Below, in pieces: positions 9,418-59,556 of a stretch of 64,000 bases of DNA; the first letter of the stretch is position 1; each line of letters begins with the position of its first letter. Both the position numbers and the translations under genes were made by a program. The notes under the pieces were generated by a model. That model saw nothing but the letters and a program-made list of their open reading frames with translations, made no database searches and was not told where the DNA came from. Source of the stretch: Deltaproteobacteria bacterium (GTDB lineage: Bacteria; Bdellovibrionota; JAJCYS01); assembly GCA_029262815.1 (NCBI GenBank), contig JAJCYS010000038.1, positions 15,182-79,181 of the forward strand. Reading direction: 5' to 3'.

Positions 9418-10125
9418 TTAGATATCTATTGTTTTGGGCAGTTCTTGTTTTTTTTCTTCAACCTTTAATTGATCAGGCCGGATGTATTTATAAGTCTTAA
9501 CAGATTTTTCGGGGTTGTAATGTTTTTGGACCCATTCTTCGATGTCCATTTCTTTTTGGTGTGGTTTATAAGATTTTATGATGGTTTCAAACGTACAAGT
9601 TCCTGTACATAGATGGCCAAACTTATGGGAAAAAGATTTTCTCGCTTCTTTGGCGGACTCACCGTGAATAATAATTCTTGCTAATGCGCTAGCAAAACTG
9701 GTTCGATCCGCACCAGCTTTACAATGAATGAGTACTATTTTTTTCTCAGCTTTCACTTTTTTGATGGCTTGAATTAAATCGATTAGTAACTTCTTGTTGG
9801 GAAATCCGCCTGTCGCATTGAGATATGGCTTTGCATCGCCGATATCAAAAAACATGTCATAATAATCGACACCCAATTTTTTGACGACTTTCTTCTCTTC
9901 TTCGTAGTAGGACTGACCTACTTTAACCCCGTTTAGGTTAATCACAGCTTGTACGTTGTTAATCGTTAAAACTTCTTCAAGTTTAGACGCGTCTAATTGA
10001 GCCGTACGAAGAATTTTATGAGGATGGCTGGGATCTCCAACTTGATGGATGTTATTACCGCATCCCGAAAGAGTAACGGCAGCAAATCCAAGATAAACCG
10101 AAACGGTTAGAATATTTGCATTCAT
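9418..10125 (-). CDS. lipoprotein Cys-based protein phosphatase (CX5R, PTP/dual-specificity-like)
   Basis: HCKAGADRTS P-loop; N-terminal signal peptide with lipobox-like LSGC. Confidence 0.65.
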   Translation of the reverse strand: MNANILTVSVYLGFAAVTLSGCGNNIHQVGDPSHPHKILRTAQLDASKLEEVLTINNVQAVINLNGVKVGQSYYEEEKKVVKKLGVDYYDMFFDIGDAKPYLNATGGFPNKKLLIDLIQAIKKVKAEKKIVLIHCKAGADRTSFASALARIIIHGESAKEARKSFSHKFGHLCTGTCTFETIIKSYKPHQKEMDIEEWVQKHYNPEKSVKTYKYIRPDQLKVEEKKQELPKTIDI

Positions 10126-10181
10126 GCCCTACATATCGGGCATAAATATATTTAGTTTAGAATTAATAAATATTTAGTTTT

Positions 10182-10335
10182 CAATAGGTGCCAAAAGGTA
10201 GCCGGGGAACCTAAGAGCTATTCCAAAAGGTAGCCGGGGAACCTAAGAGCTATTCAATAGGTGCCAAAAGGTAGCCGGGGAACCTAAGAGCTATTCAATA
10301 GGTGCCAAAAGGTAGCCGGGGAACCTAAGAGCTAG
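10182..10335. repeat. tandem array of four direct repeats (41, 32, 41, 41 bp), family A, core CCAAAAGGTAGCCGGGGAACCTAAGAGCTA
   Basis: Read directly: units at 10182-10222, 10223-10254 (truncated), 10255-10295, 10296-10335. The last unit abuts the stop codon (10336-10338) of the minus-strand gene. No spacers, so not CRISPR. Confidence 0.9.
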
Positions 10336-12198
10336 TCACTCTTCTTCATGAATTTCCACCCATTGAACTTCTTGAGGTTTCAGAAAACCATGTTTTATCA
10401 ATGCTTCTCTAATAACCTTTTCTACATCAGAGTCCCCATCGTCTCCACCTTCAAACTCTAATCGTTTTTTGAGCAGCTTCGCTTCCTCGTCACTCAACTT
10501 CGCCTTTGCTGCTTTATAGGCATAAGCGGCTATGAACCTCGTTGACCAATTCCTTTTAGTACTCAGCTTCGCTTCGTTCTTAAACTGTGACAACACATTA
10601 TGTGCATCCAGCGCTTCAGCGATGGCTCTCAGTACTTTTGGATCGCGTTCTTCCAATAATTGATTTATGAGGTGCTCTTTCTCTGTATCACCAAATTCTT
10701 TTGATACCCCATAAGCTTGTACTGTCGCTTCACGCAAGTATCTACTCGACGCGGTTAAGAAATCTGCATTTTTTAATTCAGGCATTGCATCATTGTTTTC
10801 AAGTACCTCTTTAATCAATTTAAATACTGTCGAATCGTCTTCAACTTTGAGTTGGTCAAGTAACCACGTTTTTTCATCCGAGGTCAAAGGCGATTTAGTT
10901 TTATATGCCAGCACTGCAGATAGTCGGATTTTCCAGCGGCTTGCGTTCAGAAATTCTTTCGTGCCATATTCTGGCTTTACATTATGCTTCTTAAGCGCTT
11001 GGAGAACAAGATCAATATAAATGTCTTTTTCCTCAGTTTTCAGCCGGTTCAATAAATACTTCTGATCAATTTCCACAAGTGGACTCACCACGTCTTCATA
11101 TGCGTAAATTGCAACAAATCGAATAGCCAGACTCTCTGAATTCAAATGGGTATGCGATTTAAATTCCGATAAAAGATTATGTTTTTTATACAGCTTCACA
11201 TAGGCGGCTACAACGTCAGTGTCTTCATCATATCCCAGAGTATCGTTTTCATCTTCCAGATATTTTTTAAGTAGGTTTTTCTCCTTTTCAGTCGGTTTTT
11301 TTCCCGCCTCATAAGTCTGCAGTGACAACAGTTTTAGATTCCTATTATCAGACCCAAGAAAAATCTTCGATTTCAACTCATCTACTGTGTGATGTTTTTT
11401 TATGGCAACAATAAGCACACCTGTAACATCAGAATCGTCTTCTTCATTCAATTGACTAATTAATTGAGTCTTTTCGTCAGGGGTGAGTGACTCAGCGTTT
11501 TCATACGTATGGGCTGCCGCTTGACGTACTTTCCACCTTTCAGAGCTCAAGTCTTCTTTATTTTTAAACGCAGCTAACGCCTTATGTTTCTTAAGCGTCT
11601 GGATGATAGCATCAGACACATAATCGTCCGATTCAACTTTAAATTGCGCAACAAGCGACACTATTTCTTCTGGCGTCAATGATTCTTTCTTCTCATATGT
11701 TCGAGCCGCAGCAAGTCGAAACGCACTCTTATCTGACTCAAGAGAAACCTGACTCATCATTTCTTTTGGTAACGCATCAAACTTAGCGAGAACTCTCAGA
11801 ATAAGATTCTTGAATCGTTCTTTTTTTTCTTGTTTTAACAAATTGAGGAATGCTTCTTTTTCTTTTGGGGTAATACTTTTGGCTCTCAAGTAACCCCTTG
11901 TCACTTCAAATCGAAGACGTGCATTTTTTGCAGTAAGATATTTGAGCTGATTCAAATTGATTTTGATCCCTTTATCCTTTAGGATACTGAAAACTTTTCT
12001 TATTGACTCTTCGTCAGGCGAACTGATTATCGTGTTTTCCAATCTCAAAATATCTTCGTTTGTTAGTTTACTCTTTTTGGACAGTTGCTCCACGCCTTGA
12101 TTAGATAATGAGGAACCACTCTGTGAGCCACAACCGCTACTAAATACAATCATGAGGGAGAAACAAAGAACTAAACCTATTTTCTTTTTAGACCACAT
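10336..12198 (-). CDS. secreted/lipoprotein with HEAT-like (PBS-lyase type) repeats
   Basis: 620 aa; signal peptide MWSKKKIGLVLCFSLMIVFSSGC; recurring blocks such as RWKVRQAAAHTYENAESLTPDEK...EEDDSDV; paralog of 12380-13267. Confidence 0.6.
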   Translation of the reverse strand: MWSKKKIGLVLCFSLMIVFSSGCGSQSGSSLSNQGVEQLSKKSKLTNEDILRLENTIISSPDEESIRKVFSILKDKGIKINLNQLKYLTAKNARLRFEVTRGYLRAKSITPKEKEAFLNLLKQEKKERFKNLILRVLAKFDALPKEMMSQVSLESDKSAFRLAAARTYEKKESLTPEEIVSLVAQFKVESDDYVSDAIIQTLKKHKALAAFKNKEDLSSERWKVRQAAAHTYENAESLTPDEKTQLISQLNEEDDSDVTGVLIVAIKKHHTVDELKSKIFLGSDNRNLKLLSLQTYEAGKKPTEKEKNLLKKYLEDENDTLGYDEDTDVVAAYVKLYKKHNLLSEFKSHTHLNSESLAIRFVAIYAYEDVVSPLVEIDQKYLLNRLKTEEKDIYIDLVLQALKKHNVKPEYGTKEFLNASRWKIRLSAVLAYKTKSPLTSDEKTWLLDQLKVEDDSTVFKLIKEVLENNDAMPELKNADFLTASSRYLREATVQAYGVSKEFGDTEKEHLINQLLEERDPKVLRAIAEALDAHNVLSQFKNEAKLSTKRNWSTRFIAAYAYKAAKAKLSDEEAKLLKKRLEFEGGDDGDSDVEKVIREALIKHGFLKPQEVQWVEIHEEE

Positions 12199-12292
12199 AT
12201 GTATCCTTTTGTTAACATCTATGCCTTATCGGCACCTACTAACCCATCCTTGATATCAAATGTCGAGTTATTCTACAACCTGAATTTAGTGC

Positions 12293-12341
12293 GGATTCCT
12301 GCCGAGTTTATCCCAGCTGAGGCTGGGGCAGTAATGACAAG
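12293..12341. repeat. family B-like element (GGATTCC...GTAATGACAAG)
   Basis: Resembles the GGATTCCC...GGGAATGACAGG elements at 14177 and 37324; lies directly 5' of a family A copy. Confidence 0.4.
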
Positions 12342-12347
12342 TTTGTA

Positions 12348-12383
12348 TGCCAAAAGGGTGACGGGGAACCTAAGTGTGGCTAG
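12348..12383. repeat. family A repeat, single copy (TGCCAAAAGGGTGACGGGGAACCTAAGTGTGGCTAG)
   Basis: Matches the 10182-10335 units; overlaps the stop codon of CDS 12380-13267. Confidence 0.7.
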
Positions 12384-13267
12384 TTCTGTTCTTCTTCTTC
12401 ATCAGATTCTGGTATCTTGACTCCATGTTTTTCCAACGCTTGACGAATTACATCCTTTACATCAGAAATCCCGTCCACATCTTCATCTTCAAATTTCAAT
12501 TGCTTTAGCAGAAGCGCTTTCTCATCTGGATCTGTTAAGAGTTTATCCGCTGCTTTATATGCATGGGCTGCCGCTCGTCGTATTCTCCAATTTTCAGAAG
12601 CTAAACTGTTTTCGGTTTTAAATTTGGCTAGCGCGTTAAGCTTTACCAGAACCAATAAAATAGTATCGGACACATCTCCGTCCATATCTATTTTATAATG
12701 AGCTATAAGTTTTTCTATCTCTTTCTTAGTAAGCGTTTCTTTCTTTTCGAAATTTTTAGCTGCGGCATATCGGAAGCTACCGTAATCTGACTCAAGAGAT
12801 ACTTGACTCATCATGTCTTTTGGAAACGCATCAAATTTTGCCAGTGTCCTCAGTATTAGGTCTTCAGATATATCATCTTTTTCTTCTTTAAATAATTTGA
12901 GGATAATCTTTTTTTCTTTTAACGTGATACTTTTAGATTCCTTGAAATATACTCTTATCGCCAAATTTCTTACCCTTTCATGTATTGCTTTAAGATACTT
13001 AAGTTGATTCAATTTAATTTTGATACCAGAATCAGTTAATATTTTGAATGCTTTTCCTATTATATTTTCATCAGGCGAACTGACTATCACGTTTTGTAAT
13101 CTTTGAACATCAGCATTTGATAATTCACTCTTTATAGAAATTTGCTTGATTTCTTGAATAGAAGGCAGAGGTAGACTTGAGGCGTCTTTTGTTTTGCTAC
13201 AACCGTAATTGAATATAAATATAAGGGGCAAGCAAAGAACTAAACCCATCTTCTTTTTAAACCTCAT
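12380..13267 (-). CDS. secreted/lipoprotein with HEAT-like repeats (shorter paralog)
   Basis: 295 aa; signal peptide MRFKKKMGLVLCLPLIFIFNYGC; NWRIRRAAAHAYKAADKLLTDPDEK block; 5' leader (CCGATAAGGCATAGATGTTARCAAAAGG) nearly identical to that of 10336-12198. Confidence 0.6.
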   Translation of the reverse strand: MRFKKKMGLVLCLPLIFIFNYGCSKTKDASSLPLPSIQEIKQISIKSELSNADVQRLQNVIVSSPDENIIGKAFKILTDSGIKIKLNQLKYLKAIHERVRNLAIRVYFKESKSITLKEKKIILKLFKEEKDDISEDLILRTLAKFDAFPKDMMSQVSLESDYGSFRYAAAKNFEKKETLTKKEIEKLIAHYKIDMDGDVSDTILLVLVKLNALAKFKTENSLASENWRIRRAAAHAYKAADKLLTDPDEKALLLKQLKFEDEDVDGISDVKDVIRQALEKHGVKIPESDEEEEQN

Positions 13268-13425
13268 ACATACCCTTTTGCTAACATCTATGCCTTATCG
13301 GAATTTAGCAACGAAAAATTAATATCAAAGTCTTTGTCATTCTACAACCTCAATCCCTACCTGAAGCACAACTGGTGGTTTCCCGCACGAATGTTAACGC
13401 CTGCGTTGGGAATAACGGAGCGGGG

Positions 13426-14130
13426 TTAAGTTAGGTATTGAGAAAAGGCCTGTTTAAGTTGCTGAGCACCTTCAGCCTCAATCGGCACCCCATGAGAAAC
13501 TATAATCCTTTCAATAGGCCATTCCAACATATGCTCTAATGATTTTCTAAATGCAGGCTTATCTTTGATTAACCATCGAATCACCCGCGTCGGTCCAAAC
13601 CGTCCATAGGCCCCATAAAATTTGAGCAACATCGCAGCGAAGAAATTCCCAGGTACCCTTTGAATATTAAATGCCAAATCTGTCAATATTAACGTTCGAG
13701 TCAATTTATGAAAAAAGACAACTTCACCCAACTTAGGGATTCCCTGAATCACATGTTGCGCGATATCTCCAGCCCATGCAGATTCAGGCTGTTCATTCAA
13801 TTGGCCATCAAACGTAAAGTCTTTTTTCTTATTGTCCAACCCTGGCGCAGAAAACACCTGTGCATTCGGATATGCCTTTTTATAACTAGGCACAAACACA
13901 TGATGATACCTATTGGGCGCAATGACATAAGCCACTTCACCCAGTGCATCTAATTCTTTTTTTATATCTTCAGTCAATCGAATGGGGGAATGAACCCACA
14001 TCATTCGACTTTCCCCCAACCTCACAACCGTCATACGCGACTTCGTAGGCATGCCCATCATTTTGAATAAACATGTGCCTACCCAGATGTTTTCCCCAAA
14101 TGAATGTAGTTTCATGCCCCCCCCCTGCAT
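13426..14130 (-). CDS. hypothetical protein (possibly DUF4336-like; recalled from memory, unverified)
   Basis: 234 aa ORF. Alternative start at 14115 (MKLHSF) preceded by a G-run. No catalytic motif recognised. Confidence 0.5.
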   Translation of the reverse strand: MQGGGMKLHSFGENIWVGTCLFKMMGMPTKSRMTVVRLGESRMMWVHSPIRLTEDIKKELDALGEVAYVIAPNRYHHVFVPSYKKAYPNAQVFSAPGLDNKKKDFTFDGQLNEQPESAWAGDIAQHVIQGIPKLGEVVFFHKLTRTLILTDLAFNIQRVPGNFFAAMLLKFYGAYGRFGPTRVIRWLIKDKPAFRKSLEHMLEWPIERIIVSHGVPIEAEGAQQLKQAFSQYLT

Positions 14131-14176
14131 TCAGAAATGATATCGAGGCTCATCATATCATTTTTGGTAGTATTTT

Positions 14177-14214
14177 GGATTCCCGCTCACGCTACGCGTG
14201 TCGGGAATGACAGG
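14177..14214. repeat. family B palindromic element GGATTCCCGCTCACGCTACGCGTGTCGGGAATGACAGG
   Basis: Inverted repeat ATTCCCG...CGGGAAT flanking a 16-nt spacer; related copies at 37324-37381, 29431-29474 (reverse) and a fragment at 53052-53066. Confidence 0.7.
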
Positions 14215-14237
14215 ATGAATTTAATGTCTTAGATATC

Positions 14238-15701
14238 TTATTTTTTCCAGTACTCAGGAAAGCAAATGGTTACAAAGGTAATCAGCTCTAACCTGCCTAA
14301 CAACATACAAAAAGATAAAATCATCTTTTCGCCCGAATGCAAAAATGCATAATTATTCGACGGCCCAACTTCACCAAACCCAGGACCTACATTGCTCAAA
14401 CTCGTTAAAACAGCCGTCGCTGCAGTCGTCAAGTCACTCCCAAATGCACTCAGACCCAACACCGCCAACGCAAACACCAACATGTAAAAAGTCAAAAAAC
14501 CAAACACGCCTTTAATAGTCTGATCTACTACCGCTTGTCGATTAAACTTAATCACAGAAATACTCTGAGGATGGATCAATCGATATATTTCATTAATCGC
14601 ATGCTTAAATATCAGCGCCAATCGAACAACCTTAACCCCGCCCGCAGTCGATCCCGCACATCCACCCATAAACATCAAAAACAAAATCACTGCCTGACTG
14701 AAAAAAGGCCACGTTTCATAATCCGCAGTTCCAAATCCCGTACTCGATATAATTGAAACCACTTGAAACAACACAGTCCGAATCGCATCATGCCAACTTT
14801 CAGGTTGAATCGTAGCCGTATTTGCAATCAGAATGACCGCAGCTGCCAACATAATGAGCCCAAAGTACGTTCGAAACTCACTGTCCATAAAATATGGACG
14901 AAGCCCTTGCTTTCGAAACTGATAATGCAACGTAAAGCTAGATCCAGCCAACAACATAAACACAACCACAATCCATTCAAAGGCGGCTGTCTCGTATCCC
15001 CCTAAACTCGAATTCTTAATTGAATATCCACCCGTCGCTAGCGTCGTCAAACTATGACAAATGGAATCAAACACCGGCATACCACATGCCGCCAACGCAA
15101 TGGCACACATGGCTGTTAAAAGCACATACACTTTCCATAACGTCTTGGCCGTCTCTTTGACATGAACCTGTAGTTTATCTTTGGTAGGCCCCGGCACTTC
15201 CGCCTTGTACAGCTCGAGTCCCCCCACACCCAAAAAAGGTAGAATCGCCACAGCCAACAGAATAATCCCCATGCCCCCGAGCCATTGGATCAAACTGCGC
15301 CACAATAAAATATCACCGGGCAGACTCTCAATGTGATTCAACACACTTGCGCCAGTTGTTGTAAATCCCGAGATCGATTCAAAAAAAGCATTCACGGCTG
15401 ATTCGAATGACAACGGGCCAAACGTCTCAGCAAACATAAATGGCAGGCCACCTAACATTGATATCCCAATCCATGAAACCACAACAATGAGCAACCCTTC
15501 TTTTCGGTGAATCTCATCCCCAAACCGTGAAAAGGTGGTCGTCAATAACCAGCCAATAAAAATAGCAATGACAAACGAAATTAAAAACGGGGCCGGACTC
15601 GACCCTTCAATAACACTCACGATCACAGGTACTAAAATAAATACACTGAAGGCAATGAAGATAAGGCCCACATACCGAAGGCAGGCAAATAAAACGCCCA
15701 T
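14238..15701 (-). CDS. trkH: TrkH/KtrB family potassium transporter
   Basis: Multi-pass membrane protein with SGFTTTGA selectivity-type motif; 487 aa; adjacent to trkA. Confidence 0.85.
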   Translation of the reverse strand: MGVLFACLRYVGLIFIAFSVFILVPVIVSVIEGSSPAPFLISFVIAIFIGWLLTTTFSRFGDEIHRKEGLLIVVVSWIGISMLGGLPFMFAETFGPLSFESAVNAFFESISGFTTTGASVLNHIESLPGDILLWRSLIQWLGGMGIILLAVAILPFLGVGGLELYKAEVPGPTKDKLQVHVKETAKTLWKVYVLLTAMCAIALAACGMPVFDSICHSLTTLATGGYSIKNSSLGGYETAAFEWIVVVFMLLAGSSFTLHYQFRKQGLRPYFMDSEFRTYFGLIMLAAAVILIANTATIQPESWHDAIRTVLFQVVSIISSTGFGTADYETWPFFSQAVILFLMFMGGCAGSTAGGVKVVRLALIFKHAINEIYRLIHPQSISVIKFNRQAVVDQTIKGVFGFLTFYMLVFALAVLGLSAFGSDLTTAATAVLTSLSNVGPGFGEVGPSNNYAFLHSGEKMILSFCMLLGRLELITFVTICFPEYWKK

Positions 15702-27708: not shown

Positions 27709-28341
27709 ATGAGTCAAATTATTGGTTTTTTTCAACAAGGGGGGATGTTTATGATACCGATCGCCCTGTGTTTGCTATTTAGTGTGGTTATCAGTATTGA
27801 ACGGTTCTTCAAAGTCTATTACCTGTATAGCATCGACAGCACCTCCTTTATTTCCAAAGTTCAAAATCTGACCCTTCAAAAAAATTACGACCAAGCCATT
27901 TCGCTCTGCAACTCAAAGGAAACAGCTCTTTTACCCCGCGTTATTAAATCCGCACTTCAGGGAGCCAACGAAACAGAACACAAAGTAAACATCCGAATCG
28001 AAGAAGCTACGTTGGGCGTACTGCCGCTTATTGAAAAAAGACAATCCATCCTGCCGATGATTGCAAACGTTGCCACACTGCTCGGACTGCTCGGTACGAT
28101 TGTGGGCTTAATCGAAGCCTTTGGTGCGGTTGCATCAGCCGAACCTGCCTTAAAAGCTGAGCTGCTCACACAGTCCATTTCGATCGCGATGAACACAACT
28201 GCATTTGGATTGATTGTGGCGATTCCCACCAATATTTTCCACACCATCATTCAAGAGCGGGCTACAAAAATCATCGGAGATATCGATCAGTATGCCGTAC
28301 GTATTTCTCATTTATTAAGCTTGAGTAGTGCTAAAGGATAG
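27709..28341 (+). CDS. MotA/TolQ/ExbB-family proton channel
   Basis: 210 aa; three TM segments with LLGLLGTIVGLIEAF block typical of ExbB/TolQ. Confidence 0.75.
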   Translation: MSQIIGFFQQGGMFMIPIALCLLFSVVISIERFFKVYYLYSIDSTSFISKVQNLTLQKNYDQAISLCNSKETALLPRVIKSALQGANETEHKVNIRIEEATLGVLPLIEKRQSILPMIANVATLLGLLGTIVGLIEAFGAVASAEPALKAELLTQSISIAMNTTAFGLIVAIPTNIFHTIIQERATKIIGDIDQYAVRISHLLSLSSAKG

Positions 28342-28347
28342 AAGAGC

Positions 28348-28896
28348 ATGAGACCTCCCAGCCAGCGAAGTTATCGTCGCAAACAGGAACAGGAACTCGA
28401 ACTCACGCCGATGATGAGCCTTTTTGTTGGGCTGGTACCTTTTCTGTTAACGCTTGCCGTATTCACAAAAGTGACCTTAATCTCCCTGCCCTTGCCAAAA
28501 GTAGCCCAAACAGAACAAGAGATCCGAAAAGTAGAGAAGGAAAAATTCTATCTCAGGGTGTATATCATCGATCGTAAGACAAAAAACCAAGTCCGTGGGC
28601 GACCGGGATTCGTGGTAGATAGCAACGCCTTTCGCAAAGGACCCAAATTTCTGCCCCTAACCAAAGAGAAGTCGTACGACACAACGGGGCTCAACGCCGT
28701 AATGCTTGAGGTTAAGAAGAAGAATATCAAACGGAAAAATGTCATTATCATTTCGGGTAAATATGTAGGGTTTCAGGATTTGGTCAGGACTTTAGATGCG
28801 ACACGTGAAATTCTACCCGAATTGGCTGTGAACAATCCTGAACTTCTAGGTGTAGAGCTTTTTCCTGACGTTATTATGGATGAGGCAGGTAGTTAG
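28348..28896 (+). CDS. ExbD/TolR-family protein
   Basis: 182 aa; single N-terminal TM preceded by a LELTP motif. Confidence 0.6.
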   Translation: MRPPSQRSYRRKQEQELELTPMMSLFVGLVPFLLTLAVFTKVTLISLPLPKVAQTEQEIRKVEKEKFYLRVYIIDRKTKNQVRGRPGFVVDSNAFRKGPKFLPLTKEKSYDTTGLNAVMLEVKKKNIKRKNVIIISGKYVGFQDLVRTLDATREILPELAVNNPELLGVELFPDVIMDEAGS

Positions 28897-29422
28897 AGAT
28901 ATGAGTCGATTTAAATCGAAACGTCGCGCTCGAGCCCAAACGCCGCAGCTTCAAATCACATCACTCCTTGATATTATGACGGTACTGCTTTTCTTTTTGC
29001 TCAAAAGCTTTGGCACCACACCTGAATTGAACATTTCAAAAAATCTTGAATTACCTAAAAGTGTCAGCACACGACCTGCGGTTTATGCGTTGAATATCGC
29101 CGTTTCAAAAAACGAGATCTCAGTTGATGGAGAGTCGATTATCGCATTGCAAGGCATCAGCAAGGAGACAAAACGTTTGCCTCAAGCTGTATTTCGGAGA
29201 GATCCTGATTTGATTGCTCCGCTCTTTGAACTCTTGGCCAAAAAGAGAAGTTACGCCGCTAAACTTGCAAAACGCGATCCGCTTATAAAATTCAAAGGCG
29301 ACTGTATCATTCAAGCTGACCAAGACACGCCATTTCACATTATTAAAAAGGTGCTCTATACGGCTGGTCAGGCTGGGTATTTGATGCTCAATGTCGCGAC
29401 CTTGTCGACAAAAGATATTTAA
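28880..29422 (+). CDS. ExbD/TolR-family protein (second copy)
   Basis: ITSLLDIMTVLLFFLL TM block; likely start at MSRFKS (28901). Confidence 0.6.
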   Translation: MRQVVRDMSRFKSKRRARAQTPQLQITSLLDIMTVLLFFLLKSFGTTPELNISKNLELPKSVSTRPAVYALNIAVSKNEISVDGESIIALQGISKETKRLPQAVFRRDPDLIAPLFELLAKKRSYAAKLAKRDPLIKFKGDCIIQADQDTPFHIIKKVLYTAGQAGYLMLNVATLSTKDI

Positions 29423-29430
29423 GTAAAGTT

Positions 29431-29474
29431 GGATCCCCGCTCCTTCTTCGTCATCCCTGCCTTCGCAGGGATCC
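29431..29474. repeat. family B-type palindromic element (reverse orientation)
   Basis: GGATCCCCGC...ATCCCTGCCTTCGCAGGGATCC; hairpin ATCCCTG / CAGGGAT with CCTTCG loop. Confidence 0.6.
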
Positions 29475-29486
29475 ATTTCGACTTAC

Positions 29487-29537
29487 TGCCAAAAGGGTGC
29501 CGGGGAACCTTAGTGCTTTGGGGAACCTAAGTGCTTT
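29487..29537. repeat. family A repeat, 1.5 units (TGCCAAAAGGGTGCCGGGGAACCTTAGTGCTTTGGGGAACCTAAGTGCTTT)
   Basis: Same GGGGAACCTAAG core as the 10182-10335 array; here upstream of the plus-strand CDS 29605-31929. Confidence 0.7.
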
Positions 29538-29604
29538 CCCACCTACTTCCAAACAGCAATTCCTGATATACTACTCACAAGAAATTAGATTCGAGGGGGA
29601 AAGA

Positions 29605-31929
29605 ATGAGATTTCTGAATGTTTTAACTGTACTTTTTTTTATCGGCACGGCAATTGAATTTGAATCATGCAATCCGGCGCCCCCAGCGGACAACAATGTA
29701 GCTGCAGCTCCTGGAGTCGACGATTCAGTTGTTGACATAGAAACTCTAGGTGGTGGCGGAGGCGGTTCCGATAATCCGGATGACACAACTACGGTTTGCC
29801 AGGAAGGAGACATAGATGACAAAGTTGCTGCGGGCACTACAGCTCTATTGTCTGGTGAAGTCGACACAGGTGCGACACCTATAGTCGTTGTATGGCCAAC
29901 TAATGGAGATTCCTGGCTCAGCGGGTTTGAGACAAATACAGACCCTGGAATTCTATTCGATAGTGTAGATTTAACCGGTACATTTGGTGAACTGGGCGCT
30001 ACTGGCGGTACCGGGGACGATACGGATGCTAACTTTTTACTTCAAAATGGCTCTGACGACGTATTCTATCTTGAGGTTACAGGCCGTTTTTCGTCTGCTG
30101 TAGGGGACTACGAAGACGCAGCCCTATCTGCTGATGCAGATTTTATCGGAACTGTGCTTGATGGTACTGGAGATTTAAGTACCTGTTTTGAATATCCGAT
30201 TACAGATGGCACAACACCCAGCTTAACTAACCTAAATGGGGCAAATGATCATTGTAGCGACATCGTAGCCTCAGGGCCACCGACCGGTACTCGAGTTTGG
30301 TACGTAACGGTTGTCGATGATGTGTCAGCAACTTCCGGCACAGCTGCACGAAAACAAGTCGGCACATGTACGGGGGGAGCAGTATGTGTTTCTTTGACCT
30401 CTGAATCAGGTTTCAATTCTGAAGTAGAGGACGTCAATCAAGAAGGCACTTTTGTATTTGTTCGAAACGGCGATGGCACAGCTGCAGCACCCCTCACTGG
30501 CAATCAGTCCATCTATCGATTCACGGTTGCGTCACCTACAACCGCACCTGTCCGGCTCACAGACGGCACTCAAGGTGCTTGTACAGCTGCAAGATTATTC
30601 GGAGATTCGGCCGCCAGCTCTGCTGGTACTGTCCTCTTGACCGCATGTGGTGGCGATGTCTGGGGCATCACTGACCCCTTTGGTACAACACCCGGTTCAC
30701 CGATTTTGTTATTCGATCACGCCACGGTGGACATTGATGTTCTTGTAGGAAGTCCTATGGAATCAGACAAAACGGGACGAGGTTTCACACGTGTTGCCAT
30801 TCCGTCTATGACAACGCCTACAAAAAAATCTGTCATAGCCACCAATACCCCTGTTGGCCTGAATTGTAATGCCGGTGGTAGCGGCACAGCTGCCTTGTCT
30901 TCATTCAGCTTCCTTTGGAATCTGGGCACCGCGACCTCTGGTTTTTCAAGCCTACTCAGACTTGTCAGTGGCTATAATCTGGGTAATGTACGCGATAGTC
31001 ATCTGGGAAAAGATGCAAACGGGGATTTTATTCGATTTGTAGTGTACGATAGCGACCCACAACGTGTGTACGCTTACTTTATCGGAGACAATATTGGCTT
31101 TCCGTTTGTAGCAGTTCGAACCAGGAGTGATACGGACACCTTCCTTGGCATGCATGTCACCAAAGACTTTATTTATGTTTTAGCGAGCAACATGAAAGTG
31201 TACCGCCGATCCAACACAGCAAAATGGGGAACACTGGGAAAAATTGAAAATGAAGTCGATGACTGGACACTCGTCACAACCATGCCAATGGGCACAAAAT
31301 CAATTGTCGTAGACGATTCCGTAGCAGGCGCACTTGATATCTTTTACGATGGCGATAGCCTAATTGATTCAAATAGAGCTTTTCTAAAACAAGGGTATAC
31401 CGTCGCTGGCACGACGTTCACACCTGTCGGCGTGCCGATCGAAAAATATAATTCTGGCTCATCATCAAATACATTACACGTTGATGATCTAACAAAAGTG
31501 GGTTCTCGTAGAAGCCTTTTTGGCCGCGATGACAATGGTAGTATTGTTAAGCCTATCATTGCTGATGTGCTTGATCCCACAAAATCTGTGGGGGACATGA
31601 GTTCCTTTGCCGGACTATCCTCGTGCCCCGCTGGGACGATGCGTGAACTCGTAGCGACGACCGACCCTGCATACAAAAAACTTGGCGGCCCAGATCCATC
31701 ATCTGGCACGTTCACATTTCACGCAACTGTTCTGGCTCCCTGCGGAGGCATTGACGAAGTCTGGGGCATCAATACCTTTGATAGAGTTTCTACATTTACA
31801 TCGACCGACCCCACTAGTCACAACAATTTTGGCACCACACCTGCAGGATGTAAGATTAATGGCCTTGAAATTCCAGAACCCGTAACTGCTGCAACTAAAA
31901 TAGATTGCCCACCCTTTGATACGCCATAA
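29605..31929 (+). CDS. large secreted Gly/Thr/Asp-rich protein, unknown function
   Basis: Start at ATG 29605 (MRFLNVLTVLFFIGTAIEF, signal peptide) preceded by GGGGGAAAG. 774 aa with no recognised catalytic motif; Gly-run GGGGGG near N-terminus. Confidence 0.6.
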   Translation: MRFLNVLTVLFFIGTAIEFESCNPAPPADNNVAAAPGVDDSVVDIETLGGGGGGSDNPDDTTTVCQEGDIDDKVAAGTTALLSGEVDTGATPIVVVWPTNGDSWLSGFETNTDPGILFDSVDLTGTFGELGATGGTGDDTDANFLLQNGSDDVFYLEVTGRFSSAVGDYEDAALSADADFIGTVLDGTGDLSTCFEYPITDGTTPSLTNLNGANDHCSDIVASGPPTGTRVWYVTVVDDVSATSGTAARKQVGTCTGGAVCVSLTSESGFNSEVEDVNQEGTFVFVRNGDGTAAAPLTGNQSIYRFTVASPTTAPVRLTDGTQGACTAARLFGDSAASSAGTVLLTACGGDVWGITDPFGTTPGSPILLFDHATVDIDVLVGSPMESDKTGRGFTRVAIPSMTTPTKKSVIATNTPVGLNCNAGGSGTAALSSFSFLWNLGTATSGFSSLLRLVSGYNLGNVRDSHLGKDANGDFIRFVVYDSDPQRVYAYFIGDNIGFPFVAVRTRSDTDTFLGMHVTKDFIYVLASNMKVYRRSNTAKWGTLGKIENEVDDWTLVTTMPMGTKSIVVDDSVAGALDIFYDGDSLIDSNRAFLKQGYTVAGTTFTPVGVPIEKYNSGSSSNTLHVDDLTKVGSRRSLFGRDDNGSIVKPIIADVLDPTKSVGDMSSFAGLSSCPAGTMRELVATTDPAYKKLGGPDPSSGTFTFHATVLAPCGGIDEVWGINTFDRVSTFTSTDPTSHNNFGTTPAGCKINGLEIPEPVTAATKIDCPPFDTP

Positions 31930-31950
31930 AACAAAGGCCTTGTTCTATTA

Positions 31951-31983
31951 CCCGGTGCGGAGTTCAATCCGCACCGGGTTTTT
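31951..31983 (+). terminator. intrinsic terminator (11-bp stem CCCGGTGCGGA / TCCGCACCGGG, loop GTTCAA, T5)
   Basis: Perfect inverted repeat followed by TTTTT; T-tract overlaps stop of convergent gene. Confidence 0.65.
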
Positions 31984-37323: not shown

Positions 37324-37381
37324 GGATTCCCCTCGCAGACGCTCGCGACGGGGATGATAAAAAAAGACAGGAATGACAAGG
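37324..37381. repeat. family B palindromic element GGATTCCCCTCGCAGACGCTCGCGACGGGGATGATAAAAAAAGACAGGAATGACAAGG
   Basis: Shares GGATTCCC and GGAATGACA termini with 14177-14214. Confidence 0.6.
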
Positions 37382-37386: not shown

Positions 37387-37665
37387 TTATTCAGGCCATT
37401 CTACGAGAAGTTCATTCTCAGCTAGATAACCCGTTTGCAATCGAATGACCCGCTCTCGATACCGTCTATCATGCTTGAAGATTTGGATGGTGTGCTGAAG
37501 TGCCTCAAGCTCTTGCTTAAGCAACACCAGCTCCTGATCAAATTTTTTCTTCTTTTGATACAAAGTCCAAAGTGTCTGCACACCCTTTGATTCAAAATAA
37601 GAAATAGTCCCTACAGCTGAGACCACGATTCCCACACACACACTATGTATTAAAAAACGTCTCAC
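37387..37665 (-). CDS. FtsB/DivIC-like small coiled-coil membrane protein
   Basis: 92 aa; N-terminal TM, central coiled coil, C-terminal RERVIRLQTGYLAENELLV resembling the FtsB C-terminal block. Confidence 0.5.
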   Translation of the reverse strand: MRRFLIHSVCVGIVVSAVGTISYFESKGVQTLWTLYQKKKKFDQELVLLKQELEALQHTIQIFKHDRRYRERVIRLQTGYLAENELLVEWPE

Positions 37666-38078
37666 CGCTTAGATGTTCGCTCCGTTGCAATACTAAATTT
37701 CGTTACCTTATTGCGTTGTAATATATCAAAAATCTTGACCACTATACCATGGGGGGTGGCTTTGTCCGCTTCGATTAATAATTGCTTCTCAGTCAAGCTC
37801 GGCATATTTTTGATCGTTGTTTCTAGCTCTTGAGCGGTAATCGGTTTTGATCGCCAATAAATTTGGCTTTTTTCATCAATCGAAATCACCAACGGCACAC
37901 TTTCCCCCGTTCCTTTTTGCATACTGGTCTTCGGCAGATCAATCTGGAGCGGGTTATGTTTGATGAATGTAGTAGACACCATAAAAAAGATTAACAATAA
38001 AAACACCACATCAATGAGCGGTGTCAAATCAATCGAAGGCACCTCTTCAGAAACCGATTGTTCATCAAATTTGATCAT
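37662..38078 (-). CDS. ExbD/TolR-family protein
   Basis: IDLTPLIDVVFLLLIFFMV canonical ExbD/TolR motif; 138 aa. Confidence 0.8.
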   Translation of the reverse strand: MIKFDEQSVSEEVPSIDLTPLIDVVFLLLIFFMVSTTFIKHNPLQIDLPKTSMQKGTGESVPLVISIDEKSQIYWRSKPITAQELETTIKNMPSLTEKQLLIEADKATPHGIVVKIFDILQRNKVTKFSIATERTSKR

Positions 38079-38700
38079 GTCGCTTCTCTAAGAACAGGGT
38101 TTCGTACACGTTATCTAACTCTGATTCAATCGCGGTCATAATCGTCAAAGATCGATTTCGAATCACTTTATGAGCCACAAATGTTGGAATCGCAACCAAC
38201 AATCCAGCGATCGTAGTCAACAAAGCTTCAGATATCCCCCCCGCTAAGTGGCTTGCATTTCCTAACCCATGGGTATTAATCGTCTGAAAGACATGCATCA
38301 TCCCAAGCACCGTACCCAACAACCCCAAAAGAGGTGCAATACTGGCAACCGTCGAAAGCATATCCACACCACGCATCAATTGCTTTTGGACCATCGTCAT
38401 CGGCCCACGCATCCTTTCAGCGGTTTCTTTGGATCCGTGTGATTGATACTCCAACATTTTTAACACGAGATAACTCACCGGACGGTTCGAATGTTTAAGA
38501 CGCCCGATCACTTCATTTGCCTGATCAGAACCTAAATGCTTCAACTCATTAAGCAACGACTTAGGCAAATGATACCCATTTCGTAAATACACCAAACGTT
38601 CCAAAAAAACGGCCAGTGAAACCACAGAAATTAACAAAATAACCCCAAGGACAGGCCCGCCTTGTTCGAATAACGCTACCCAATCAATTGTCATAATCAA
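38065..38700 (-). CDS. MotA/TolQ/ExbB-family proton channel
   Basis: 211 aa; IAPLLGLLGTVLGM block. Confidence 0.8.
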   Translation of the reverse strand: MIMTIDWVALFEQGGPVLGVILLISVVSLAVFLERLVYLRNGYHLPKSLLNELKHLGSDQANEVIGRLKHSNRPVSYLVLKMLEYQSHGSKETAERMRGPMTMVQKQLMRGVDMLSTVASIAPLLGLLGTVLGMMHVFQTINTHGLGNASHLAGGISEALLTTIAGLLVAIPTFVAHKVIRNRSLTIMTAIESELDNVYETLFLEKRHDQI

Positions 38701-48431: not shown

Positions 48432-48462
48432 GTACTAACCTACCCAACTGTAGGTCAAAAAA

Positions 48463-48497
48463 ACCTGGCGTCATTTAATTGGCGTCAGGTTTTTTTA
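48463..48497 (+). terminator. intrinsic terminator (stem with G-U wobbles, T7 tract)
   Basis: ACCTGGCGTCA ... TGGCGTCAGGT followed by TTTTTTT; A-tract upstream. Confidence 0.5.
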
Positions 48498-49265: not shown

Positions 49266-50132
49266 ATGAGATATAGCCGATTTTATTGCCTTCTGGCATG
49301 TTGCATGGTGCTTACAAGCTGCACACGTAACAACACCGAACCGACTGCGAAGTTCTTATCTGTCCTATTTACCTCACATGCGGCACTGCTAAATGCAACC
49401 AAAACGCCAAGCGCTGAGAATGATAAAAATTTAAAATTTTTTAGAATGACACATGGTCGATATTTTGGGAATGAGATGGAAACATTCGCAAAATTTGATG
49501 CTATCTACAAAGGGGAACTTTATTGGCTGTTCAGTCAGGGACCTGATCGTGAAACATACATTTGGATGGTGTACAAACTGCCTGAAGGCATGCCCTCAAC
49601 TCTACAGACAAAAAAAGATGAAAAAGATAAGAAGAAGGATGAAAAAGATAAGGAAAAAGAGGTTGATCCCAAAAAACCACTTGTCGGCTGCTCGCAATTT
49701 ATGATGTCGATTGAAACGACATACGAAGGCGGATTGGCCTATGCCTATGATACTGAGTTGCCCACTATTAGCATGGGGCCTTGGATACAAATGGATTATT
49801 CCGGGGAAAAGCTGGCTATCAAAAAGTTAAGCACAAAATACATTAATTCGTTCTTTACGCTTATCCAGCATGAGAGTGGAAGCATCAAAGCACGTTGGCA
49901 GAGTGACAGCTCTATAGCAAGAATCAAAATATCCCGCGTTAGACCCGTAGAGCCCTATGCCTATGTTGATTTAGTTCCAGCTGAACCAACTGCATACATT
50001 AAGGATGCGCTAAGGAAGAATGTTAGATACACGTTTTTGAAACACACGATAAAAAAATCAATTAAAAAGAAAGATGAGAAGGAAGACACTGAAAAAGATA
50101 AAAAAGACAACAAGGAAACCAAAGAGGATTAG
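49266..50132 (+). CDS. lipoprotein with Lys/Asp/Glu low-complexity segments
   Basis: MRYSRFYCLLACCMVLTSC lipobox; KKDEKDKKKDEKDKEKE internal and KKKDEKEDTEKDKKDNKETKED C-terminal tracts. Confidence 0.6.
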   Translation: MRYSRFYCLLACCMVLTSCTRNNTEPTAKFLSVLFTSHAALLNATKTPSAENDKNLKFFRMTHGRYFGNEMETFAKFDAIYKGELYWLFSQGPDRETYIWMVYKLPEGMPSTLQTKKDEKDKKKDEKDKEKEVDPKKPLVGCSQFMMSIETTYEGGLAYAYDTELPTISMGPWIQMDYSGEKLAIKKLSTKYINSFFTLIQHESGSIKARWQSDSSIARIKISRVRPVEPYAYVDLVPAEPTAYIKDALRKNVRYTFLKHTIKKSIKKKDEKEDTEKDKKDNKETKED

Positions 50133-50731: not shown

Positions 50732-52078
50732 TTATTTTTTCCTCCAATCTTTCCATTTGTTTTTCCAATAGTCTTTGGTCTGCTCCAGCGCACCTTTTTC
50801 TTGTTCTTTAACTTTTGGTTTTAACCCATACTGACGATTAACCTCATTTAAAGTTTTGTTATATTCTGCATTTAACTCATTGATCTCCAGCTGAAAATCC
50901 TGCTTATCTTCAAGAGTAAGGGCGGGTTTCACGTCTTTCTTTTGTCTCTGATTAAATTCGTTCACTTTTTCAAGATATGCTTTTTGTTGTTTTTTACTCT
51001 TTTCTTCAAGTTTAGCAAACGCTTCATCACCTATGTACTTATCACTTTGACTGCTACTTTTGTCATCTTCTTCGGCACTCTTCTCTTGCGAGTTACCATC
51101 CTGTGATTTGCTAGAGTCGTCTTGTTGTTTAGTTTCGCCCTCTTGGGAATTGCCATCATCATTTGATTGGTTGTCGTCTTCTTTAGTTTCTTCAGATTTA
51201 CTATCATCAACTTGTTTTACAGTCTTTTGAACAGGCCCTTTAACAATCGGCTTCCCTTTGCTTAGCAGCTGACCTTTTTTATTAATGGTTACGTCATTTA
51301 TATCCACCGCTTGAAATCCAACTTCCATCGTAAACTGCACGGTTACCGTGCTCGCTTCAGTTACTTTTGCAGCTGCTCGAATAAACCCTTCATTTTTAGT
51401 TGGTGTAAATATAAGTTCAGGCACACGGGGACAAATCTGAGTAAATGAGCATTTCAATGTTACATCTAAATTTTCTTCGTAAGGTTTCCGAACGATGAGC
51501 TCCTCTTTCGCATTTTCCATATCCAAGTGAGTCGGCAATGGACGAATCGGTCCACTCCAAATCAACCCATTAATGGTATCGCCATTTTTGATCTCATATG
51601 GTGAGACCCAAGGATTTTTTGCATCTCGTTTTTCTGCAATAAAATCAACAAACGTACCTTTCTCTTGCTCAGTATCCCAATAAAACATCCGTATTTTGAA
51701 AGCCCCTAGTCCTTCTTTAGGAAAAAAGTACACAAATTTACCGTTCAATGTCGTCTCAGGCTTGCCCTTATACTGGAATGGTTCTCCTAGGAATGACTTA
51801 ACACCCTTATCGACCGCTGCCTGTGCCCTCGTTTTAATAAACGCATAATGATCACTAACCACAGTCCCTTTTAGCTCCTCAGGTAGAGGTACAAACCATT
51901 TATCTGTGTTCTTTTGAGTTAATTCCTCTTTGGTGACCTTTACAACATCTTCTTTCTTCAGCACCTGCATCAGCTTTTTATTAAACTCTTCTTCCTTGAG
52001 AGGAACGCCGCAGCCAACAAACACCAAAATACATACAATTGCAATAAAAAATTCTTGTTTTTTCATATATTTCAACAT
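50732..52078 (-). CDS. lipoprotein with acidic low-complexity linker, unknown function
   Basis: Start at 52078 (MLKYMKKQEFFIAIVCILVFVGC) preceded by AAAGAGGTG; acidic Ser/Asp/Gln-rich linker then Lys-rich coiled-coil-like tail. Confidence 0.6.
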   Translation of the reverse strand: MLKYMKKQEFFIAIVCILVFVGCGVPLKEEEFNKKLMQVLKKEDVVKVTKEELTQKNTDKWFVPLPEELKGTVVSDHYAFIKTRAQAAVDKGVKSFLGEPFQYKGKPETTLNGKFVYFFPKEGLGAFKIRMFYWDTEQEKGTFVDFIAEKRDAKNPWVSPYEIKNGDTINGLIWSGPIRPLPTHLDMENAKEELIVRKPYEENLDVTLKCSFTQICPRVPELIFTPTKNEGFIRAAAKVTEASTVTVQFTMEVGFQAVDINDVTINKKGQLLSKGKPIVKGPVQKTVKQVDDSKSEETKEDDNQSNDDGNSQEGETKQQDDSSKSQDGNSQEKSAEEDDKSSSQSDKYIGDEAFAKLEEKSKKQQKAYLEKVNEFNQRQKKDVKPALTLEDKQDFQLEINELNAEYNKTLNEVNRQYGLKPKVKEQEKGALEQTKDYWKNKWKDWRKK

Positions 52079-52294
52079 GTTACACCTCTTTAGGTTGCGA
52101 AAACTTCTTTTCAGTTGACCATAAAAAATAAGTTTAAGCAATTTAAAAAACACTAATCGTTTTATCGGTTATTTAGCTAATAGTTTTAACAGTTTATGCA
52201 TCTATTTAATATTTAATGAATTTATATACTTACACTAAATATTTTATTTATAAATGTCGATCAGACGGTGAGGTTTCATGAAGGAGGGGGGAAG

Positions 52295-53023
52295 ATGAGC
52301 TATTTCAACAACCGTTTGGTGGTGTGTGCGTTTTTGGGCGCGGGGCTGCTGATATTGCCTGCCCAAAGCAATGCGTTCCAACCTAATGACGCTGGCCTTG
52401 CAACACCCGACAACTTTGATCAGATGCCGATTCAGTACCACAACGGCTCACAAGCAAGCCCCTATGACGCTCCTCAAGGTTATGACATGCCCCAACGAGA
52501 TCTCCCTGCAGCTCCTGAGATTCCGCGACAGCCCGCTCAATTCCCGACTGCGCCTAACTTGAACGCCCCCCAAGATATTCAACAGGGCTATGATGCTCCG
52601 CCGCAGTACAACAGCTACCCACAGAATCAAAACCCGTACCCTGATGTTCAACGAGATCCCAACAGTGATTATATGGATAAACAGCCCCCCCCTAATATGC
52701 AACAAGGATATGACTCACTGCCTCAAAGTAACAGCTACCCTCAAACTCAAAACCCCTATCCAGATGTTCAACGAGACCCTGAATCACTCAATGATTCTGA
52801 TCCGTTTGATCAAAATCAATATGACCAAAACCCTCAAGATTATCCTTCTGAATTCATTGATTCAGGAGAACCAGACGCAAATCTACCTCAGGCGGATCGA
52901 CTACCTCTGCAAACACCTTTTGAGCCCCCACAGATTGATGATTTCTCACCTGAGCAAGAGTTACAAAATCCACAACCCTATCCTGAATTTGACCAACAAC
53001 AGCTGGATGACATTCGACAGTAA
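52295..53023 (+). CDS. secreted Pro/Gln/Tyr/Asp-rich repeat protein
   Basis: Start at ATG 52295 after GAAGGAGGGGGG; signal peptide ...LPAQSNA; internal direct repeat QQGYDxxPQxNSYPQxQNPYPDVQRDP occurs twice. Confidence 0.6.
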   Translation: MSYFNNRLVVCAFLGAGLLILPAQSNAFQPNDAGLATPDNFDQMPIQYHNGSQASPYDAPQGYDMPQRDLPAAPEIPRQPAQFPTAPNLNAPQDIQQGYDAPPQYNSYPQNQNPYPDVQRDPNSDYMDKQPPPNMQQGYDSLPQSNSYPQTQNPYPDVQRDPESLNDSDPFDQNQYDQNPQDYPSEFIDSGEPDANLPQADRLPLQTPFEPPQIDDFSPEQELQNPQPYPEFDQQQLDDIRQ

Positions 53024-53179
53024 GATAGATTGCTTCGGATAGTACGCCTGCGACGACAGATGGATCCCTGCCTCCGTGTATAGTCCCGAAAGATTGCAAG
53101 TATAGAAAGGAAGTGATAAGAGGGATAGAGTACAGCAACGGCCTGACACCGCCATCTCTACCAAAATATCGAATCGTCT

Positions 53180-59521: not shown

Positions 59522-59556
59522 GTCATTTTCGACGAGATTGCTTCGTCGAAAATGAC
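59522..59556. terminator. perfect 14-bp palindrome GTCATTTTCGACGA-GATTGCT-TCGTCGAAAATGAC
   Basis: Read directly. Lies between the lipoprotein gene and the 5S terminator; no flanking U-tract, so it may be a protein-binding or RNA-processing site instead. Confidence 0.35.

Follow-up and report, generated by a model that had tools for sequence, protein, structure and literature searches.

The interval between an exbD gene and the start of a large lipoprotein-like gene at 29605 raises the question of what the repeated sequence lying there is. The window, meaning the whole analysed stretch of 64,000 nucleotides, had been described in a first-pass annotation, which placed members of two repeat families, B and A, side by side at 29431-29537, with recurrences at 12293-12383 and at about 13376-13436. 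The two families were suggested to be halves of one composite element, and the block was assigned to the putative promoter region of the gene at 29605. A B+A block at 29431-29537 was confirmed: a palindromic family B copy is followed by an 11-nt spacer, then TGCCAAAAGGGTGCCGGGGAACCTTAGTGCTTT, and the family A part consists of a full unit and a half-unit duplication.

The B segment of this block reads TTGGATCCCCGC-tccttctt-CGTCATCCCTGC-cttc-GCAGGGATCCA and has two alternative pairings. In the outer one, TGGATCCC and GGGATCCA form an 8-bp stem around a 30-nt loop; the inner one is an NTS-like hairpin at 29450-29474, GTCATCCCTGC-cttc-GCAGGGATCC, with a perfect 8-bp stem and a folding energy as RNA of -15.1 kcal/mol (z = -2.8 against shuffled sequences). 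The A half-unit is a tandem duplicate of the last 18 nt of the full unit, with one substitution. An identical block was found in a Logan contig (L005, run SRR15505518), one of several of 2.3-2.5 kb that fall inside the coordinates of the window, and a blastn comparison with plasmids and phages gave no match. The features of the window that bear on the block are listed in Table 1.

Table 1. Repeat copies, neighbouring genes and the candidate promoter element, with positions counted from the first letter of the window.
Feature	Position	Strand	Details
Family A tandem array, four units, without B	10189-10337	+	start-to-start distances 32, 41 and 41 nt; TRF/nhmmer
Family B copy	12293-12338	-	GTCATTACTGCC-(23 nt, inner CCAGC/GCTGG hairpin)-GGCAGGAATCC on the minus strand; RNA fold -16.5 kcal/mol, z -1.9
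Family A unit	12348-12379	+	nhmmer E 5e-9
Degenerate family B copy	13377-13410	-	GGTTTCCCGC...TGGGAATAAC on the plus strand; fold z -0.2 to -0.55, no better than shuffles
Family B copy without A, most NTS-like	14177-14211	-	GTCATTCCCG-acacgcgtagcgtgag-CGGGAATCC on the minus strand; 26 nt past the trkH stop codon
Second exbD of the OMP-exbB-exbD-exbD cluster	28880-29422	+	Pfam ExbD 1.1e-12
Family B copy, compound form	29431-29475	+	GC-rich palindrome; GTCAT on the plus strand; 8 nt past the exbD stop codon
Family A full unit	29487-29518	+	TGCCAAAAGGGTGCCGGGGAACCTTAGTGCTT; nhmmer E 3e-10
Family A half-unit	29519-29537	+	GGGGAACCTAAGTGCTTT; TRF period 18, 2.0 copies; nhmmer E 0.004
Candidate extended -10 (TGa-TATACT)	29564-29572	+	predicted, read from the sequence; 27 nt downstream of the repeat block
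Orphan lipoprotein-like gene, 774 aa	29605-31929	+	N-terminus MRFLNVLTVLFFIGTAIEFESC...
Family B copy without A	37324-37378	-	two alternative 5' arms: GTCATTCCTG...ATCATCCCCGTCGC-gagcgtct-GCGAGGGGAATCC

Family A is defined by the core TGCCAAAAGG-N4-CGGGGAACCTAAG. When the core was counted as CCGGGGAACCTAAG with at most two mismatches allowed, seven copies were found at three loci of the 64-kb window, all on the plus strand, where 0.27 would be expected: four units at 10189-10337, a single unit at 12348-12379, and a full plus a half unit at 29487-29537. Every one of the six plus-strand occurrences of CCAAAAGG in the window belongs to a family A member, and a profile built from the known copies recovered no further ones there. 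The copies are 78-84% identical to one another over 32 nt and fold no better than shuffled sequences on either strand (z = +0.4, -1.2, and -0.6). The array at 10189-10337 is absent from the first-pass annotation. Its last unit runs into the stop codon (10336-10338) of the minus-strand lipoprotein gene 10336-12198, and the array lies 66 nt from the start of the lipoprotein phosphatase gene 9418-10125, on its upstream side. The unit at 12348-12379, in turn, abuts the stop codon (12380-12382) of the minus-strand lipoprotein gene 12380-13267.

Outside the window, family A was sought with the exact pattern CCAAAAGG-N4-CGGGGAACCT-N-AG in genome, metagenome, and viral contig collections, and only chance matches were obtained; plasmids and phages, compared with the block by blastn, gave none. 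The collection matches fell at four loci, apparently representing one sequence (one of them labelled Cloacimonadota), with flanks that are unrelated to the window and that carry an ABC-transporter-like signature in translation. Family A is a new, unstructured direct repeat of 32-41 nt, present, among the collections searched, in this genome only. Several known identities were considered for it and set aside. The units at 10189-10337 run head-to-tail without spacers, unlike a CRISPR array; the stretch GGTTCCCC does not resemble the T-arm of a tRNA or tmRNA; the GG-GC spacing is 14 nt rather than the 12 nt of a sigma-54 promoter, and only weak sigma-70 hexamers are present; and the GTTRRRY motif of an integron attC site occurs at one end only.

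Family B is an imperfect palindrome present in five copies, four strict and one degenerate, all of them intergenic. The left end, (T)TGGATYCC, was found on the plus strand in all five, and the opposite end, ...GGRATGAC, in four. The outer ends are conserved as GTCAT(T/C)CC ... GG(A/G)ATCC(A)A, and the inner stems and loops vary; the GTCAT...ATCC frame is kept by four of the five, the copy at 13377 having GTTAT...AACC. Two patterns for the family, both written after the copies had been seen, gave four matches each in the window against 0.17 and 0.24 expected, the second value belonging to GTCATYMY-N8-45-RKRATCC, a post hoc design. The arms differ among copies yet remain complementary (ATTCCCG/CGGGAAT, ATCCCTGC/GCAGGGAT, ATTACTGCC/GGCAGGAAT and, with bulges, ATCCCCGTCGC/GCGAGGGGAAT), indicating that the hairpin itself has been maintained, beyond sequence alone. 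Stems of 7-10 bp were found in four copies, and four of the five fold better than their shuffled counterparts (z = -2.8, -1.9, -3.4, and -1.7), at an inter-copy identity of 50-68%. For the copy at 14177-14211, z reached -4.3 as DNA and -3.35 as RNA. The degenerate copy at 13377-13410 occupies a position homologous to that of the 12293 copy, just past a duplicated upstream region.

The copies at 14177-14211 and 37324-37378, both of which stand without A, do not appear in the first-pass annotation. The latter begins 8 nt past the stop codon of the ftsB-like gene at the end of the second exbB-exbD cluster; the adjoining 92-aa ORF was considered as a GIY-YIG gene and proved to be FtsB/DivIC. The plus strand is C-rich throughout the window, and the strand on which four of the five B copies read GTCAT-forward is the G-rich one. 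This strand would be the lagging-strand template, which, with five copies, is only a hint. Intrinsic terminators were also considered; a scan found none in the block, and the B copies precede A-rich or mixed sequence with no U tract. An Rfam scan at gathering scores returned only a 5S rRNA, and E-value scans of 10100-14300 and 29380-29620 returned nothing credible. An 11-mer, AGATTGCTTCG, is shared by positions 53030 and 59541, which is within chance expectation.

Are A and B parts of one element? At both 29431-29537 and 12293-12379, B is followed by A in the same order and on the same strand after a spacer of 10-11 nt, and the distance from the B start to the A-core end is 83 bp at 29431 and 82 bp at 12293. 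The recurrence claimed for 12293-12383 is therefore real, with B at 12293-12338 and A at 12348-12379 arranged as at 29431. The recurrence claimed at about 13376-13436 holds for its B half, the degenerate palindrome at 13377-13410, but not for its A half, since the A-like stretch at 13413-13425 went undetected by the A profile at E<=100. On alignment, the 82/83-bp span was kept at two loci, but conservation within the composite blocks was unequal (about 84% identity in A, 50% in B, and 31% in the spacer), and the third block was without a significant A. The two loci also have opposite polarities of the B GTCAT end with respect to A, GTCAT being on the minus strand at 12293 and on the plus strand at 29450.

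The adjacency was compared with a randomisation in which three A loci and five B loci were placed in the 28 intergenic regions of the window. In 0.4% of the trials, at least two A loci came to lie 20 nt or less from a B (P ~0.004), whereas at least two of the three merely sharing an intergenic region with a B was not unusual (P = 0.19). The sample is 64 kb only, with three A loci and five B loci. Moreover, two of the A loci, 10189 and 12348, are part of a single tandem duplication and thus not independent, and the 12293-12379 junction lies at the joint of that duplication, so that very few independent events are represented. The modules also occur separately, A without B at 10189-10337 and B without A at 14177-14211 and 37324-37378. 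The proposal that they are two halves of one element is accordingly retained only as a non-random association with the same 82-83 bp span at two loci: A and B are associated modules, separable, and not obligate halves. The A core GGGGAACC resembles the B right arm, or left-arm complement, GGGGATCC, and in the minimum-free-energy DNA fold of the 29431 block the B left arm pairs with the first A core. Because the left arm co-varies with its own right arm and not with A, this resemblance may be a trace of common origin only.

All blocks begin 0-26 nt past the stop codon of the upstream gene, and those containing A adjoin genes with lipoprotein-type signal peptides, which encode a 235-aa phosphatase, a 620-aa protein with a HEAT-repeat match, its 295-aa paralogue, and the 774-aa protein (given as 775 aa in the first-pass annotation). 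The paralogous genes 10336-12198 and 12380-13267 stand in tandem, and their products are 52% identical. They share a conserved upstream promoter-like pair, TTGTAG-N17-TAT(C/T)AA, and their upstream homology ends immediately next to B, at the 12293 and 13377 copies; their 3' coding ends are homologous as well, and A follows each. The ending of upstream homology at B, together with 3' ends followed by A, identifies the B-A junction at 12293-12379 as the duplication joint, an arrangement that unequal exchange between flanking repeat blocks would give. A repeat block is present at each boundary of the duplication of these tandem lipoprotein paralogues. GC content is 38-39% at 10-14 kb, compared with about 44% for the window. 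No transposase, integrase, Y1 transposase, or GIY-YIG/Ssn gene was found within the window when its ORFs were scanned with Pfam and its six frames were searched for a GIY-YIG signature.

In a word-index search of about 5.8 billion protein sequences the 774-aa protein matched itself only, and a protein search with the 620-aa protein likewise returned only itself. For the Lon protein of the window, the four best non-self matches show 65-68% identity, followed at 46-49% by proteins named from Bdellovibrionales, Oligoflexia, Bacteriovoracaceae, and Halobacteriovorax, which marks the window as derived from a divergent Bdellovibrionota-like organism. Neither family A nor a credible B was present in 22 kb of a relative (JGI contig, L006; Lon 65% identical, 52% GC), which shares the gene order around lon with the window.

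The assignment of the block to the promoter region of the 29605 gene did not fare well. The sole promoter-like element, the candidate extended -10, lies downstream of the block, between it and the ribosome-binding site GAGGGGG at 29593-29599, and a strict scan found neither a two-hexamer sigma-70 promoter nor a canonical terminator in the block. Judging from these letters, the promoter of the 29605 gene is likely to be downstream of the block, with a transcription start predicted at about 29579-29581. The block ends about 7 nt upstream of the expected -35 position, and an influence on the promoter is possible; no specific effect is indicated, and the block is not demonstrably a promoter feature. 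The placement of the repeats tracks upstream stop codons instead: the trait consistent among all copies is a position after a stop codon, rather than any distance or orientation to the downstream start.

Taken together, these observations are best explained, with a probability of roughly 55%, if the block is a mosaic of separable small non-coding repeats of the REP/BIME/NIME type that spread or recombine. By analogy with Neisseria, a hairpin-specific enzyme whose gene lies in another part of the genome would probably act on the single-stranded form of B; it would be either a small GIY-YIG single-stranded DNA nuclease of the Ssn type or a comparable hairpin-specific enzyme, and its action, or recombination, might spread and maintain the B copies. 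Local multiplication of family A, probably by slippage or unequal exchange, is visible in the four units at 10189 and the 18-nt half-unit at 29519, and A tends to lie 10-11 nt from the B right arm. Both modules accumulate just past stop codons, within the first few nucleotides, and flank lineage-specific lipoprotein genes, and the dispersed homologous copies could serve as recombination substrates. A bolder proposal can be made: in this deep-branching Bdellovibrionota lineage, the B/A blocks would be the visible portion of a recombination system of the Ssn type, resembling that of NIMEs but outside Neisseria, with a dedicated nuclease cutting or binding single-stranded B and a second protein docking on A, so as to drive the duplication and exchange of orphan surface-lipoprotein genes. 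This proposal is speculative and, in our estimation, improbable in its entirety.

The main rival concerns A, which, with or without B, might be a cis-regulatory protein-binding site (an operator or upstream activating site) of a small lipoprotein regulon, with the tandem copies serving as multiple sites. Each A block has a gene with a lipoprotein signal peptide downstream of it (9418-10125, 10336-12198, and 29605-31929), the degenerate block precedes 12380-13267, and the nearest unit ends at similar distances from two start codons, 66 nt before that at 10125 and 68 nt before that at 29605. The conservation of sequence but not structure would suit a binding site, as would the 41- and 32-nt spacings, which are near whole helical turns, and a weak dyad, AGGT-N9-ACCT, within A. 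The orientation of A to the downstream gene is, however, inverted between loci (same strand at 29487, opposite at 10189 and 12348), and the 12348 unit is 151 nt from the start codon with B intervening. Three of the four genes belong to one duplicated island, which leaves effectively two independent loci, and other lipoprotein genes of the window, such as 50732-52153, are without A. The A ends at 10337 and 12379 touch or overlap the upstream stop codon, as is typical of 3' intergenic repeats and not of operators. A regulatory role of A appears rather unlikely. The position of A upstream of lipoprotein genes in all A blocks counts against the mosaic of separable repeats and also fits regulation. 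A somewhat better chance, still on the doubtful side, is given to the idea that the B hairpins act as RNA, being 3'-end stem-loops that stop transcription or shield the mRNA from 3' exonucleases, with their repetition reflecting convergent function. E. coli REP elements stabilise upstream mRNA and provide a precedent; a stop codon lies 8 to about 50 nt before the start of each of the five B copies, also at both exbB-exbD clusters, their GC-rich stems are stable as RNA (-15 to -16.5 kcal/mol), and the only other terminator-like hairpin in those regions is a 9-bp AT-rich one at 14135-14163. Yet no copy is followed by a U tract, whereas canonical hairpin-plus-U terminators are used elsewhere in the organism (48457-48496 and 59570-59604). 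A hairpin function alone would leave unexplained why the non-palindromic ends (GTCAT, ATCCAA) are conserved and why the strand is shared, and would not account for A at all. An RNA-level role is, moreover, compatible with a mosaic of spreading repeats as a side effect of it, and is hardly an alternative.

Two further explanations address the junction rather than its parts. The near-equal lengths of the two blocks, 82 and 83 bp, would be expected if B+A were one non-autonomous, MITE-like element of about 83 bp, whose imperfect terminal inverted repeats were the B left arm GGATCCCCGC and the reversed A core GGTTCCCCGGC; the likeness of the A core to the B arm and the pairing of the left arm with the first A core in the DNA fold at 29431, both described above, point the same way. 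No target-site duplication was seen at either copy, however, and the complementarity of left arm and A core, which is 9/11 at one copy, drops to 7/11 at 12293. Co-variation between them is lacking, as the left arm follows the B right arm and the A core is constant. The interior is only about 50% identical, against about 84% for A; A occurs in head-to-tail arrays without B, and B also occurs without A. A single MITE-like element is accordingly judged very unlikely. Likewise very improbable is the view that A and B are not truly associated, their juxtaposition having arisen from a single local tandem duplication together with chance. That the 12293-12379 junction lies at the joint of two tandemly duplicated gene units, and that sharing an intergenic region is by itself unremarkable (P = 0.19), would fit such an origin; but the 29431 block lies 17 kb away in an unrelated gene context with the same order, strand, and span, and random placement seldom put A and B within 20 nt of each other at two loci or more (P ~0.004).

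Little hangs on a single block by itself. If the pattern were confirmed in the whole genome, the range of NTS/dRS3-type hairpins and their mosaics would reach a little-studied relative of predatory bacteria, such mosaics would here too adjoin fast-evolving surface-lipoprotein genes, and the lineage would have, in family A, a new partner motif of its own. For annotation, blocks of this kind should be masked as intergenic repeats, and not called as promoters or small RNA genes.

Several known classes of short repeats invite comparison. Like MITEs, of which the Correia elements of Neisseria are an example, the blocks are short (about 80-150 bp), intergenic, and repeated, and may sit upstream of genes; unlike them, they lack convincing terminal inverted repeats as well as a target-site duplication, and their two halves also turn up independently of each other. 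The BIMEs of E. coli combine REP or palindromic units with extra-palindromic motifs, and REPs are linked to RAYT Y1 transposases. The present blocks likewise join an imperfect palindrome to conserved non-palindromic motifs, just past stop codons, with modules that also occur separately. They differ from BIMEs in having no GTAG-type REP head, in keeping one common orientation instead of an alternating one, and in that no RAYT gene was seen in the window.

The closest parallel for B alone is the NTS repeat (Neisseria Transformation Sequence), whose consensus, CGTCATTCCCGCGMAVGCGGGAATCYRG, is an extended form of dRS3 (PMC11893778). SsnA, a GIY-YIG nuclease of 94 aa, binds NTS in single-stranded form and cuts it; cleavage depends mainly on the three bases upstream of the palindrome, and binding mainly on the C just after it (PMC11893778). 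The identity of the loop bases is not essential for cleavage, and the loop can be removed or replaced in a split-substrate assay (PMC11893778). NTS copies are almost never intragenic and cluster beside membrane-protein genes, and Ssn homologues in several phyla are accompanied by related motifs, termed SRM (PMC11893778). Family B has the same architecture, namely GTCAT, an ATTCCC-type arm, a loop, a GGGAAT-type arm, and C. It is, like NTS, oriented by non-palindromic flanks, strictly intergenic, and located near membrane-protein or lipoprotein genes, on both sides of genes. The copy at 14177, which on the minus strand reads TGTCATTCCCG-(16 nt)-CGGGAATCCAA, matches NTS at 21 of 25 arm positions, including the upstream GTC and the trailing C, and the copy at 29450 reads CGTCATCCCTGC-cttc-GCAGGGATCCAT. 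In contrast to the 3-nt loop of NTS, the loops of family B measure 4-23 nt, and the inner stems differ among copies; unlike in Neisseria, the window holds no ssnA-like gene, and the host is a divergent Bdellovibrionota-like lineage.

SRMs are defined by a hairpin-forming inverted repeat of 20-50 nt, with GTC(A/T)Y on the 5' side and C on the 3' side, by a small single-domain GIY-YIG (cd10448) Ssn gene that is usually flanked by the motif, and by cutting of their single-stranded forward strand by the cognate nuclease. Four B copies form such a hairpin, and four of the five carry the oriented GTC(A/T)Y and C flanks. The SRM pattern HGTCWYN(0-2)YYVSBRHN(0-5)WNVSBRGN(0-2)RNCYNB, which the NTS consensus itself matches, had no matches in the window, mainly because the B loops exceed its 5-nt limit; when the loop limit was relaxed to 30 and the last base was dropped, only 14177-14212 matched. 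The strict dRS3 form, ATTCCC-N8-GGGAAT, was absent from the window, and ATTCCC-N6-30-GGGAAT matched once, at 14179-14208, with N18. Since the SRM pattern is unmatched and strict dRS3 absent, family B is called NTS-like, that is, a putative NTS/dRS3-like hairpin repeat by its sequence, and not a proven SRM.

For the joining of B to A, the nearest counterparts are the NIMEs (neisserial intergenic mosaic elements), which join dRS3 hairpins to further repeat families and adjoin variable surface-protein genes; a 2007 account knew of none outside Neisseria (PMC1797815). In a NIME, dRS3 flanks the RS elements on either side and arrays can be long, whereas here the hairpin stands on one side and the arrays are short. 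Neither the two-sided bracketing of NIMEs nor the alternating orientation of BIMEs was found, all B left ends being on the plus strand, and the family A tandem array at 10189-10337 differs from NIMEs in being wholly without hairpins. The recurrent combination of a hairpin with a non-palindromic motif that marks NIME and BIME mosaics was, however, observed at two loci (P ~0.004). As in NIMEs, a hairpin repeat is joined to non-palindromic families in intergenic arrays of varying copy number, and the B/A blocks, like the NIMEs that were proposed as recombination substrates, flank variable surface-protein genes.

The 20-base search pattern for family A, the unstructured intergenic direct repeat of 32-41 nt, matched four loci (L001-L004), apparently one same sequence in all four. 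L001 is labelled Cloacimonadota; the other three are metagenome contigs without a label. Translation of the flank of the match revealed an ABC-transporter-like signature, and the flanks of all four loci are unrelated to the window; the match was therefore attributed to chance, and the loci were rejected as relatives of family A.

Two separate exbB-exbD clusters are present in the window and, at both, a family B hairpin lies no more than 8 nt after the last stop codon of the operon. The 774-aa lipoprotein-like product has no Pfam domain, and a protein search returned only the protein itself. A protein search with the 620-aa lipoprotein of the low-GC island also returned nothing but the query, which carries a HEAT-repeat match and stands in tandem with a 295-aa paralogue (52% identity); both contain internal repeats. 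The P/Q-rich, secreted-looking ORF at 52268-53023 has no Pfam match, and adjoins a second run of ORFs without Pfam matches.

Features of the window, in window coordinates
Feature	Position	Strand	Description
Low-GC island	9418-14130		38-39% GC vs about 44%; lipoprotein phosphatase, two tandem paralogous lipoproteins, DUF4336 protein
exbB-exbD cluster	27709-29422
774-aa gene	29605-31929
Terminator-like hairpin	31950-31979		bidirectional, 12-bp stem, after the 774-aa gene
exbB-exbD cluster	37662-38700
Run of ORFs	47.9-52.2 kb
Lysine-rich repeats	49606-50122		low complexity, part of the run of ORFs
P/Q-rich ORF	52268-53023
94-nt repeat	52566-52779		within the P/Q-rich ORF; 2 copies, 77% identical, 120 nt apart
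Lone B-type left arm	53062-53072		GGATCCCTGCC; intergenic, downstream of lon
Hairpin	59522-59556		14-bp perfect stem, GTCATTTTCGACGA-gattgct-TCGTCGAAAATGAC; a 113-aa ORF on one side, the 5S terminator on the other
5S terminator	59570-59604
5S rRNA gene	59606-59722	(-)	stand-alone, with its own terminator

No 16S or 23S rRNA was found in the whole 64 kb window. A lone 5S gene is also present at the equivalent position in the contig of the nearest relative obtained (L006 5255-5371), and, since it stands alone at corresponding places in both, a 5S gene not linked to an rRNA operon looks like a trait of the lineage.

The left arm downstream of lon lacks a partner arm, and may be a decayed copy of family B, the NTS/dRS3-like imperfect-palindrome hairpin repeat. 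The hairpin beside the 5S terminator (DNA fold z -7.1) is missing in the relative (L006 5372-5560). It may represent another variant among the hairpin repeats: the GTCAT/ATGAC ends are held in common with family B, whereas the arms differ.
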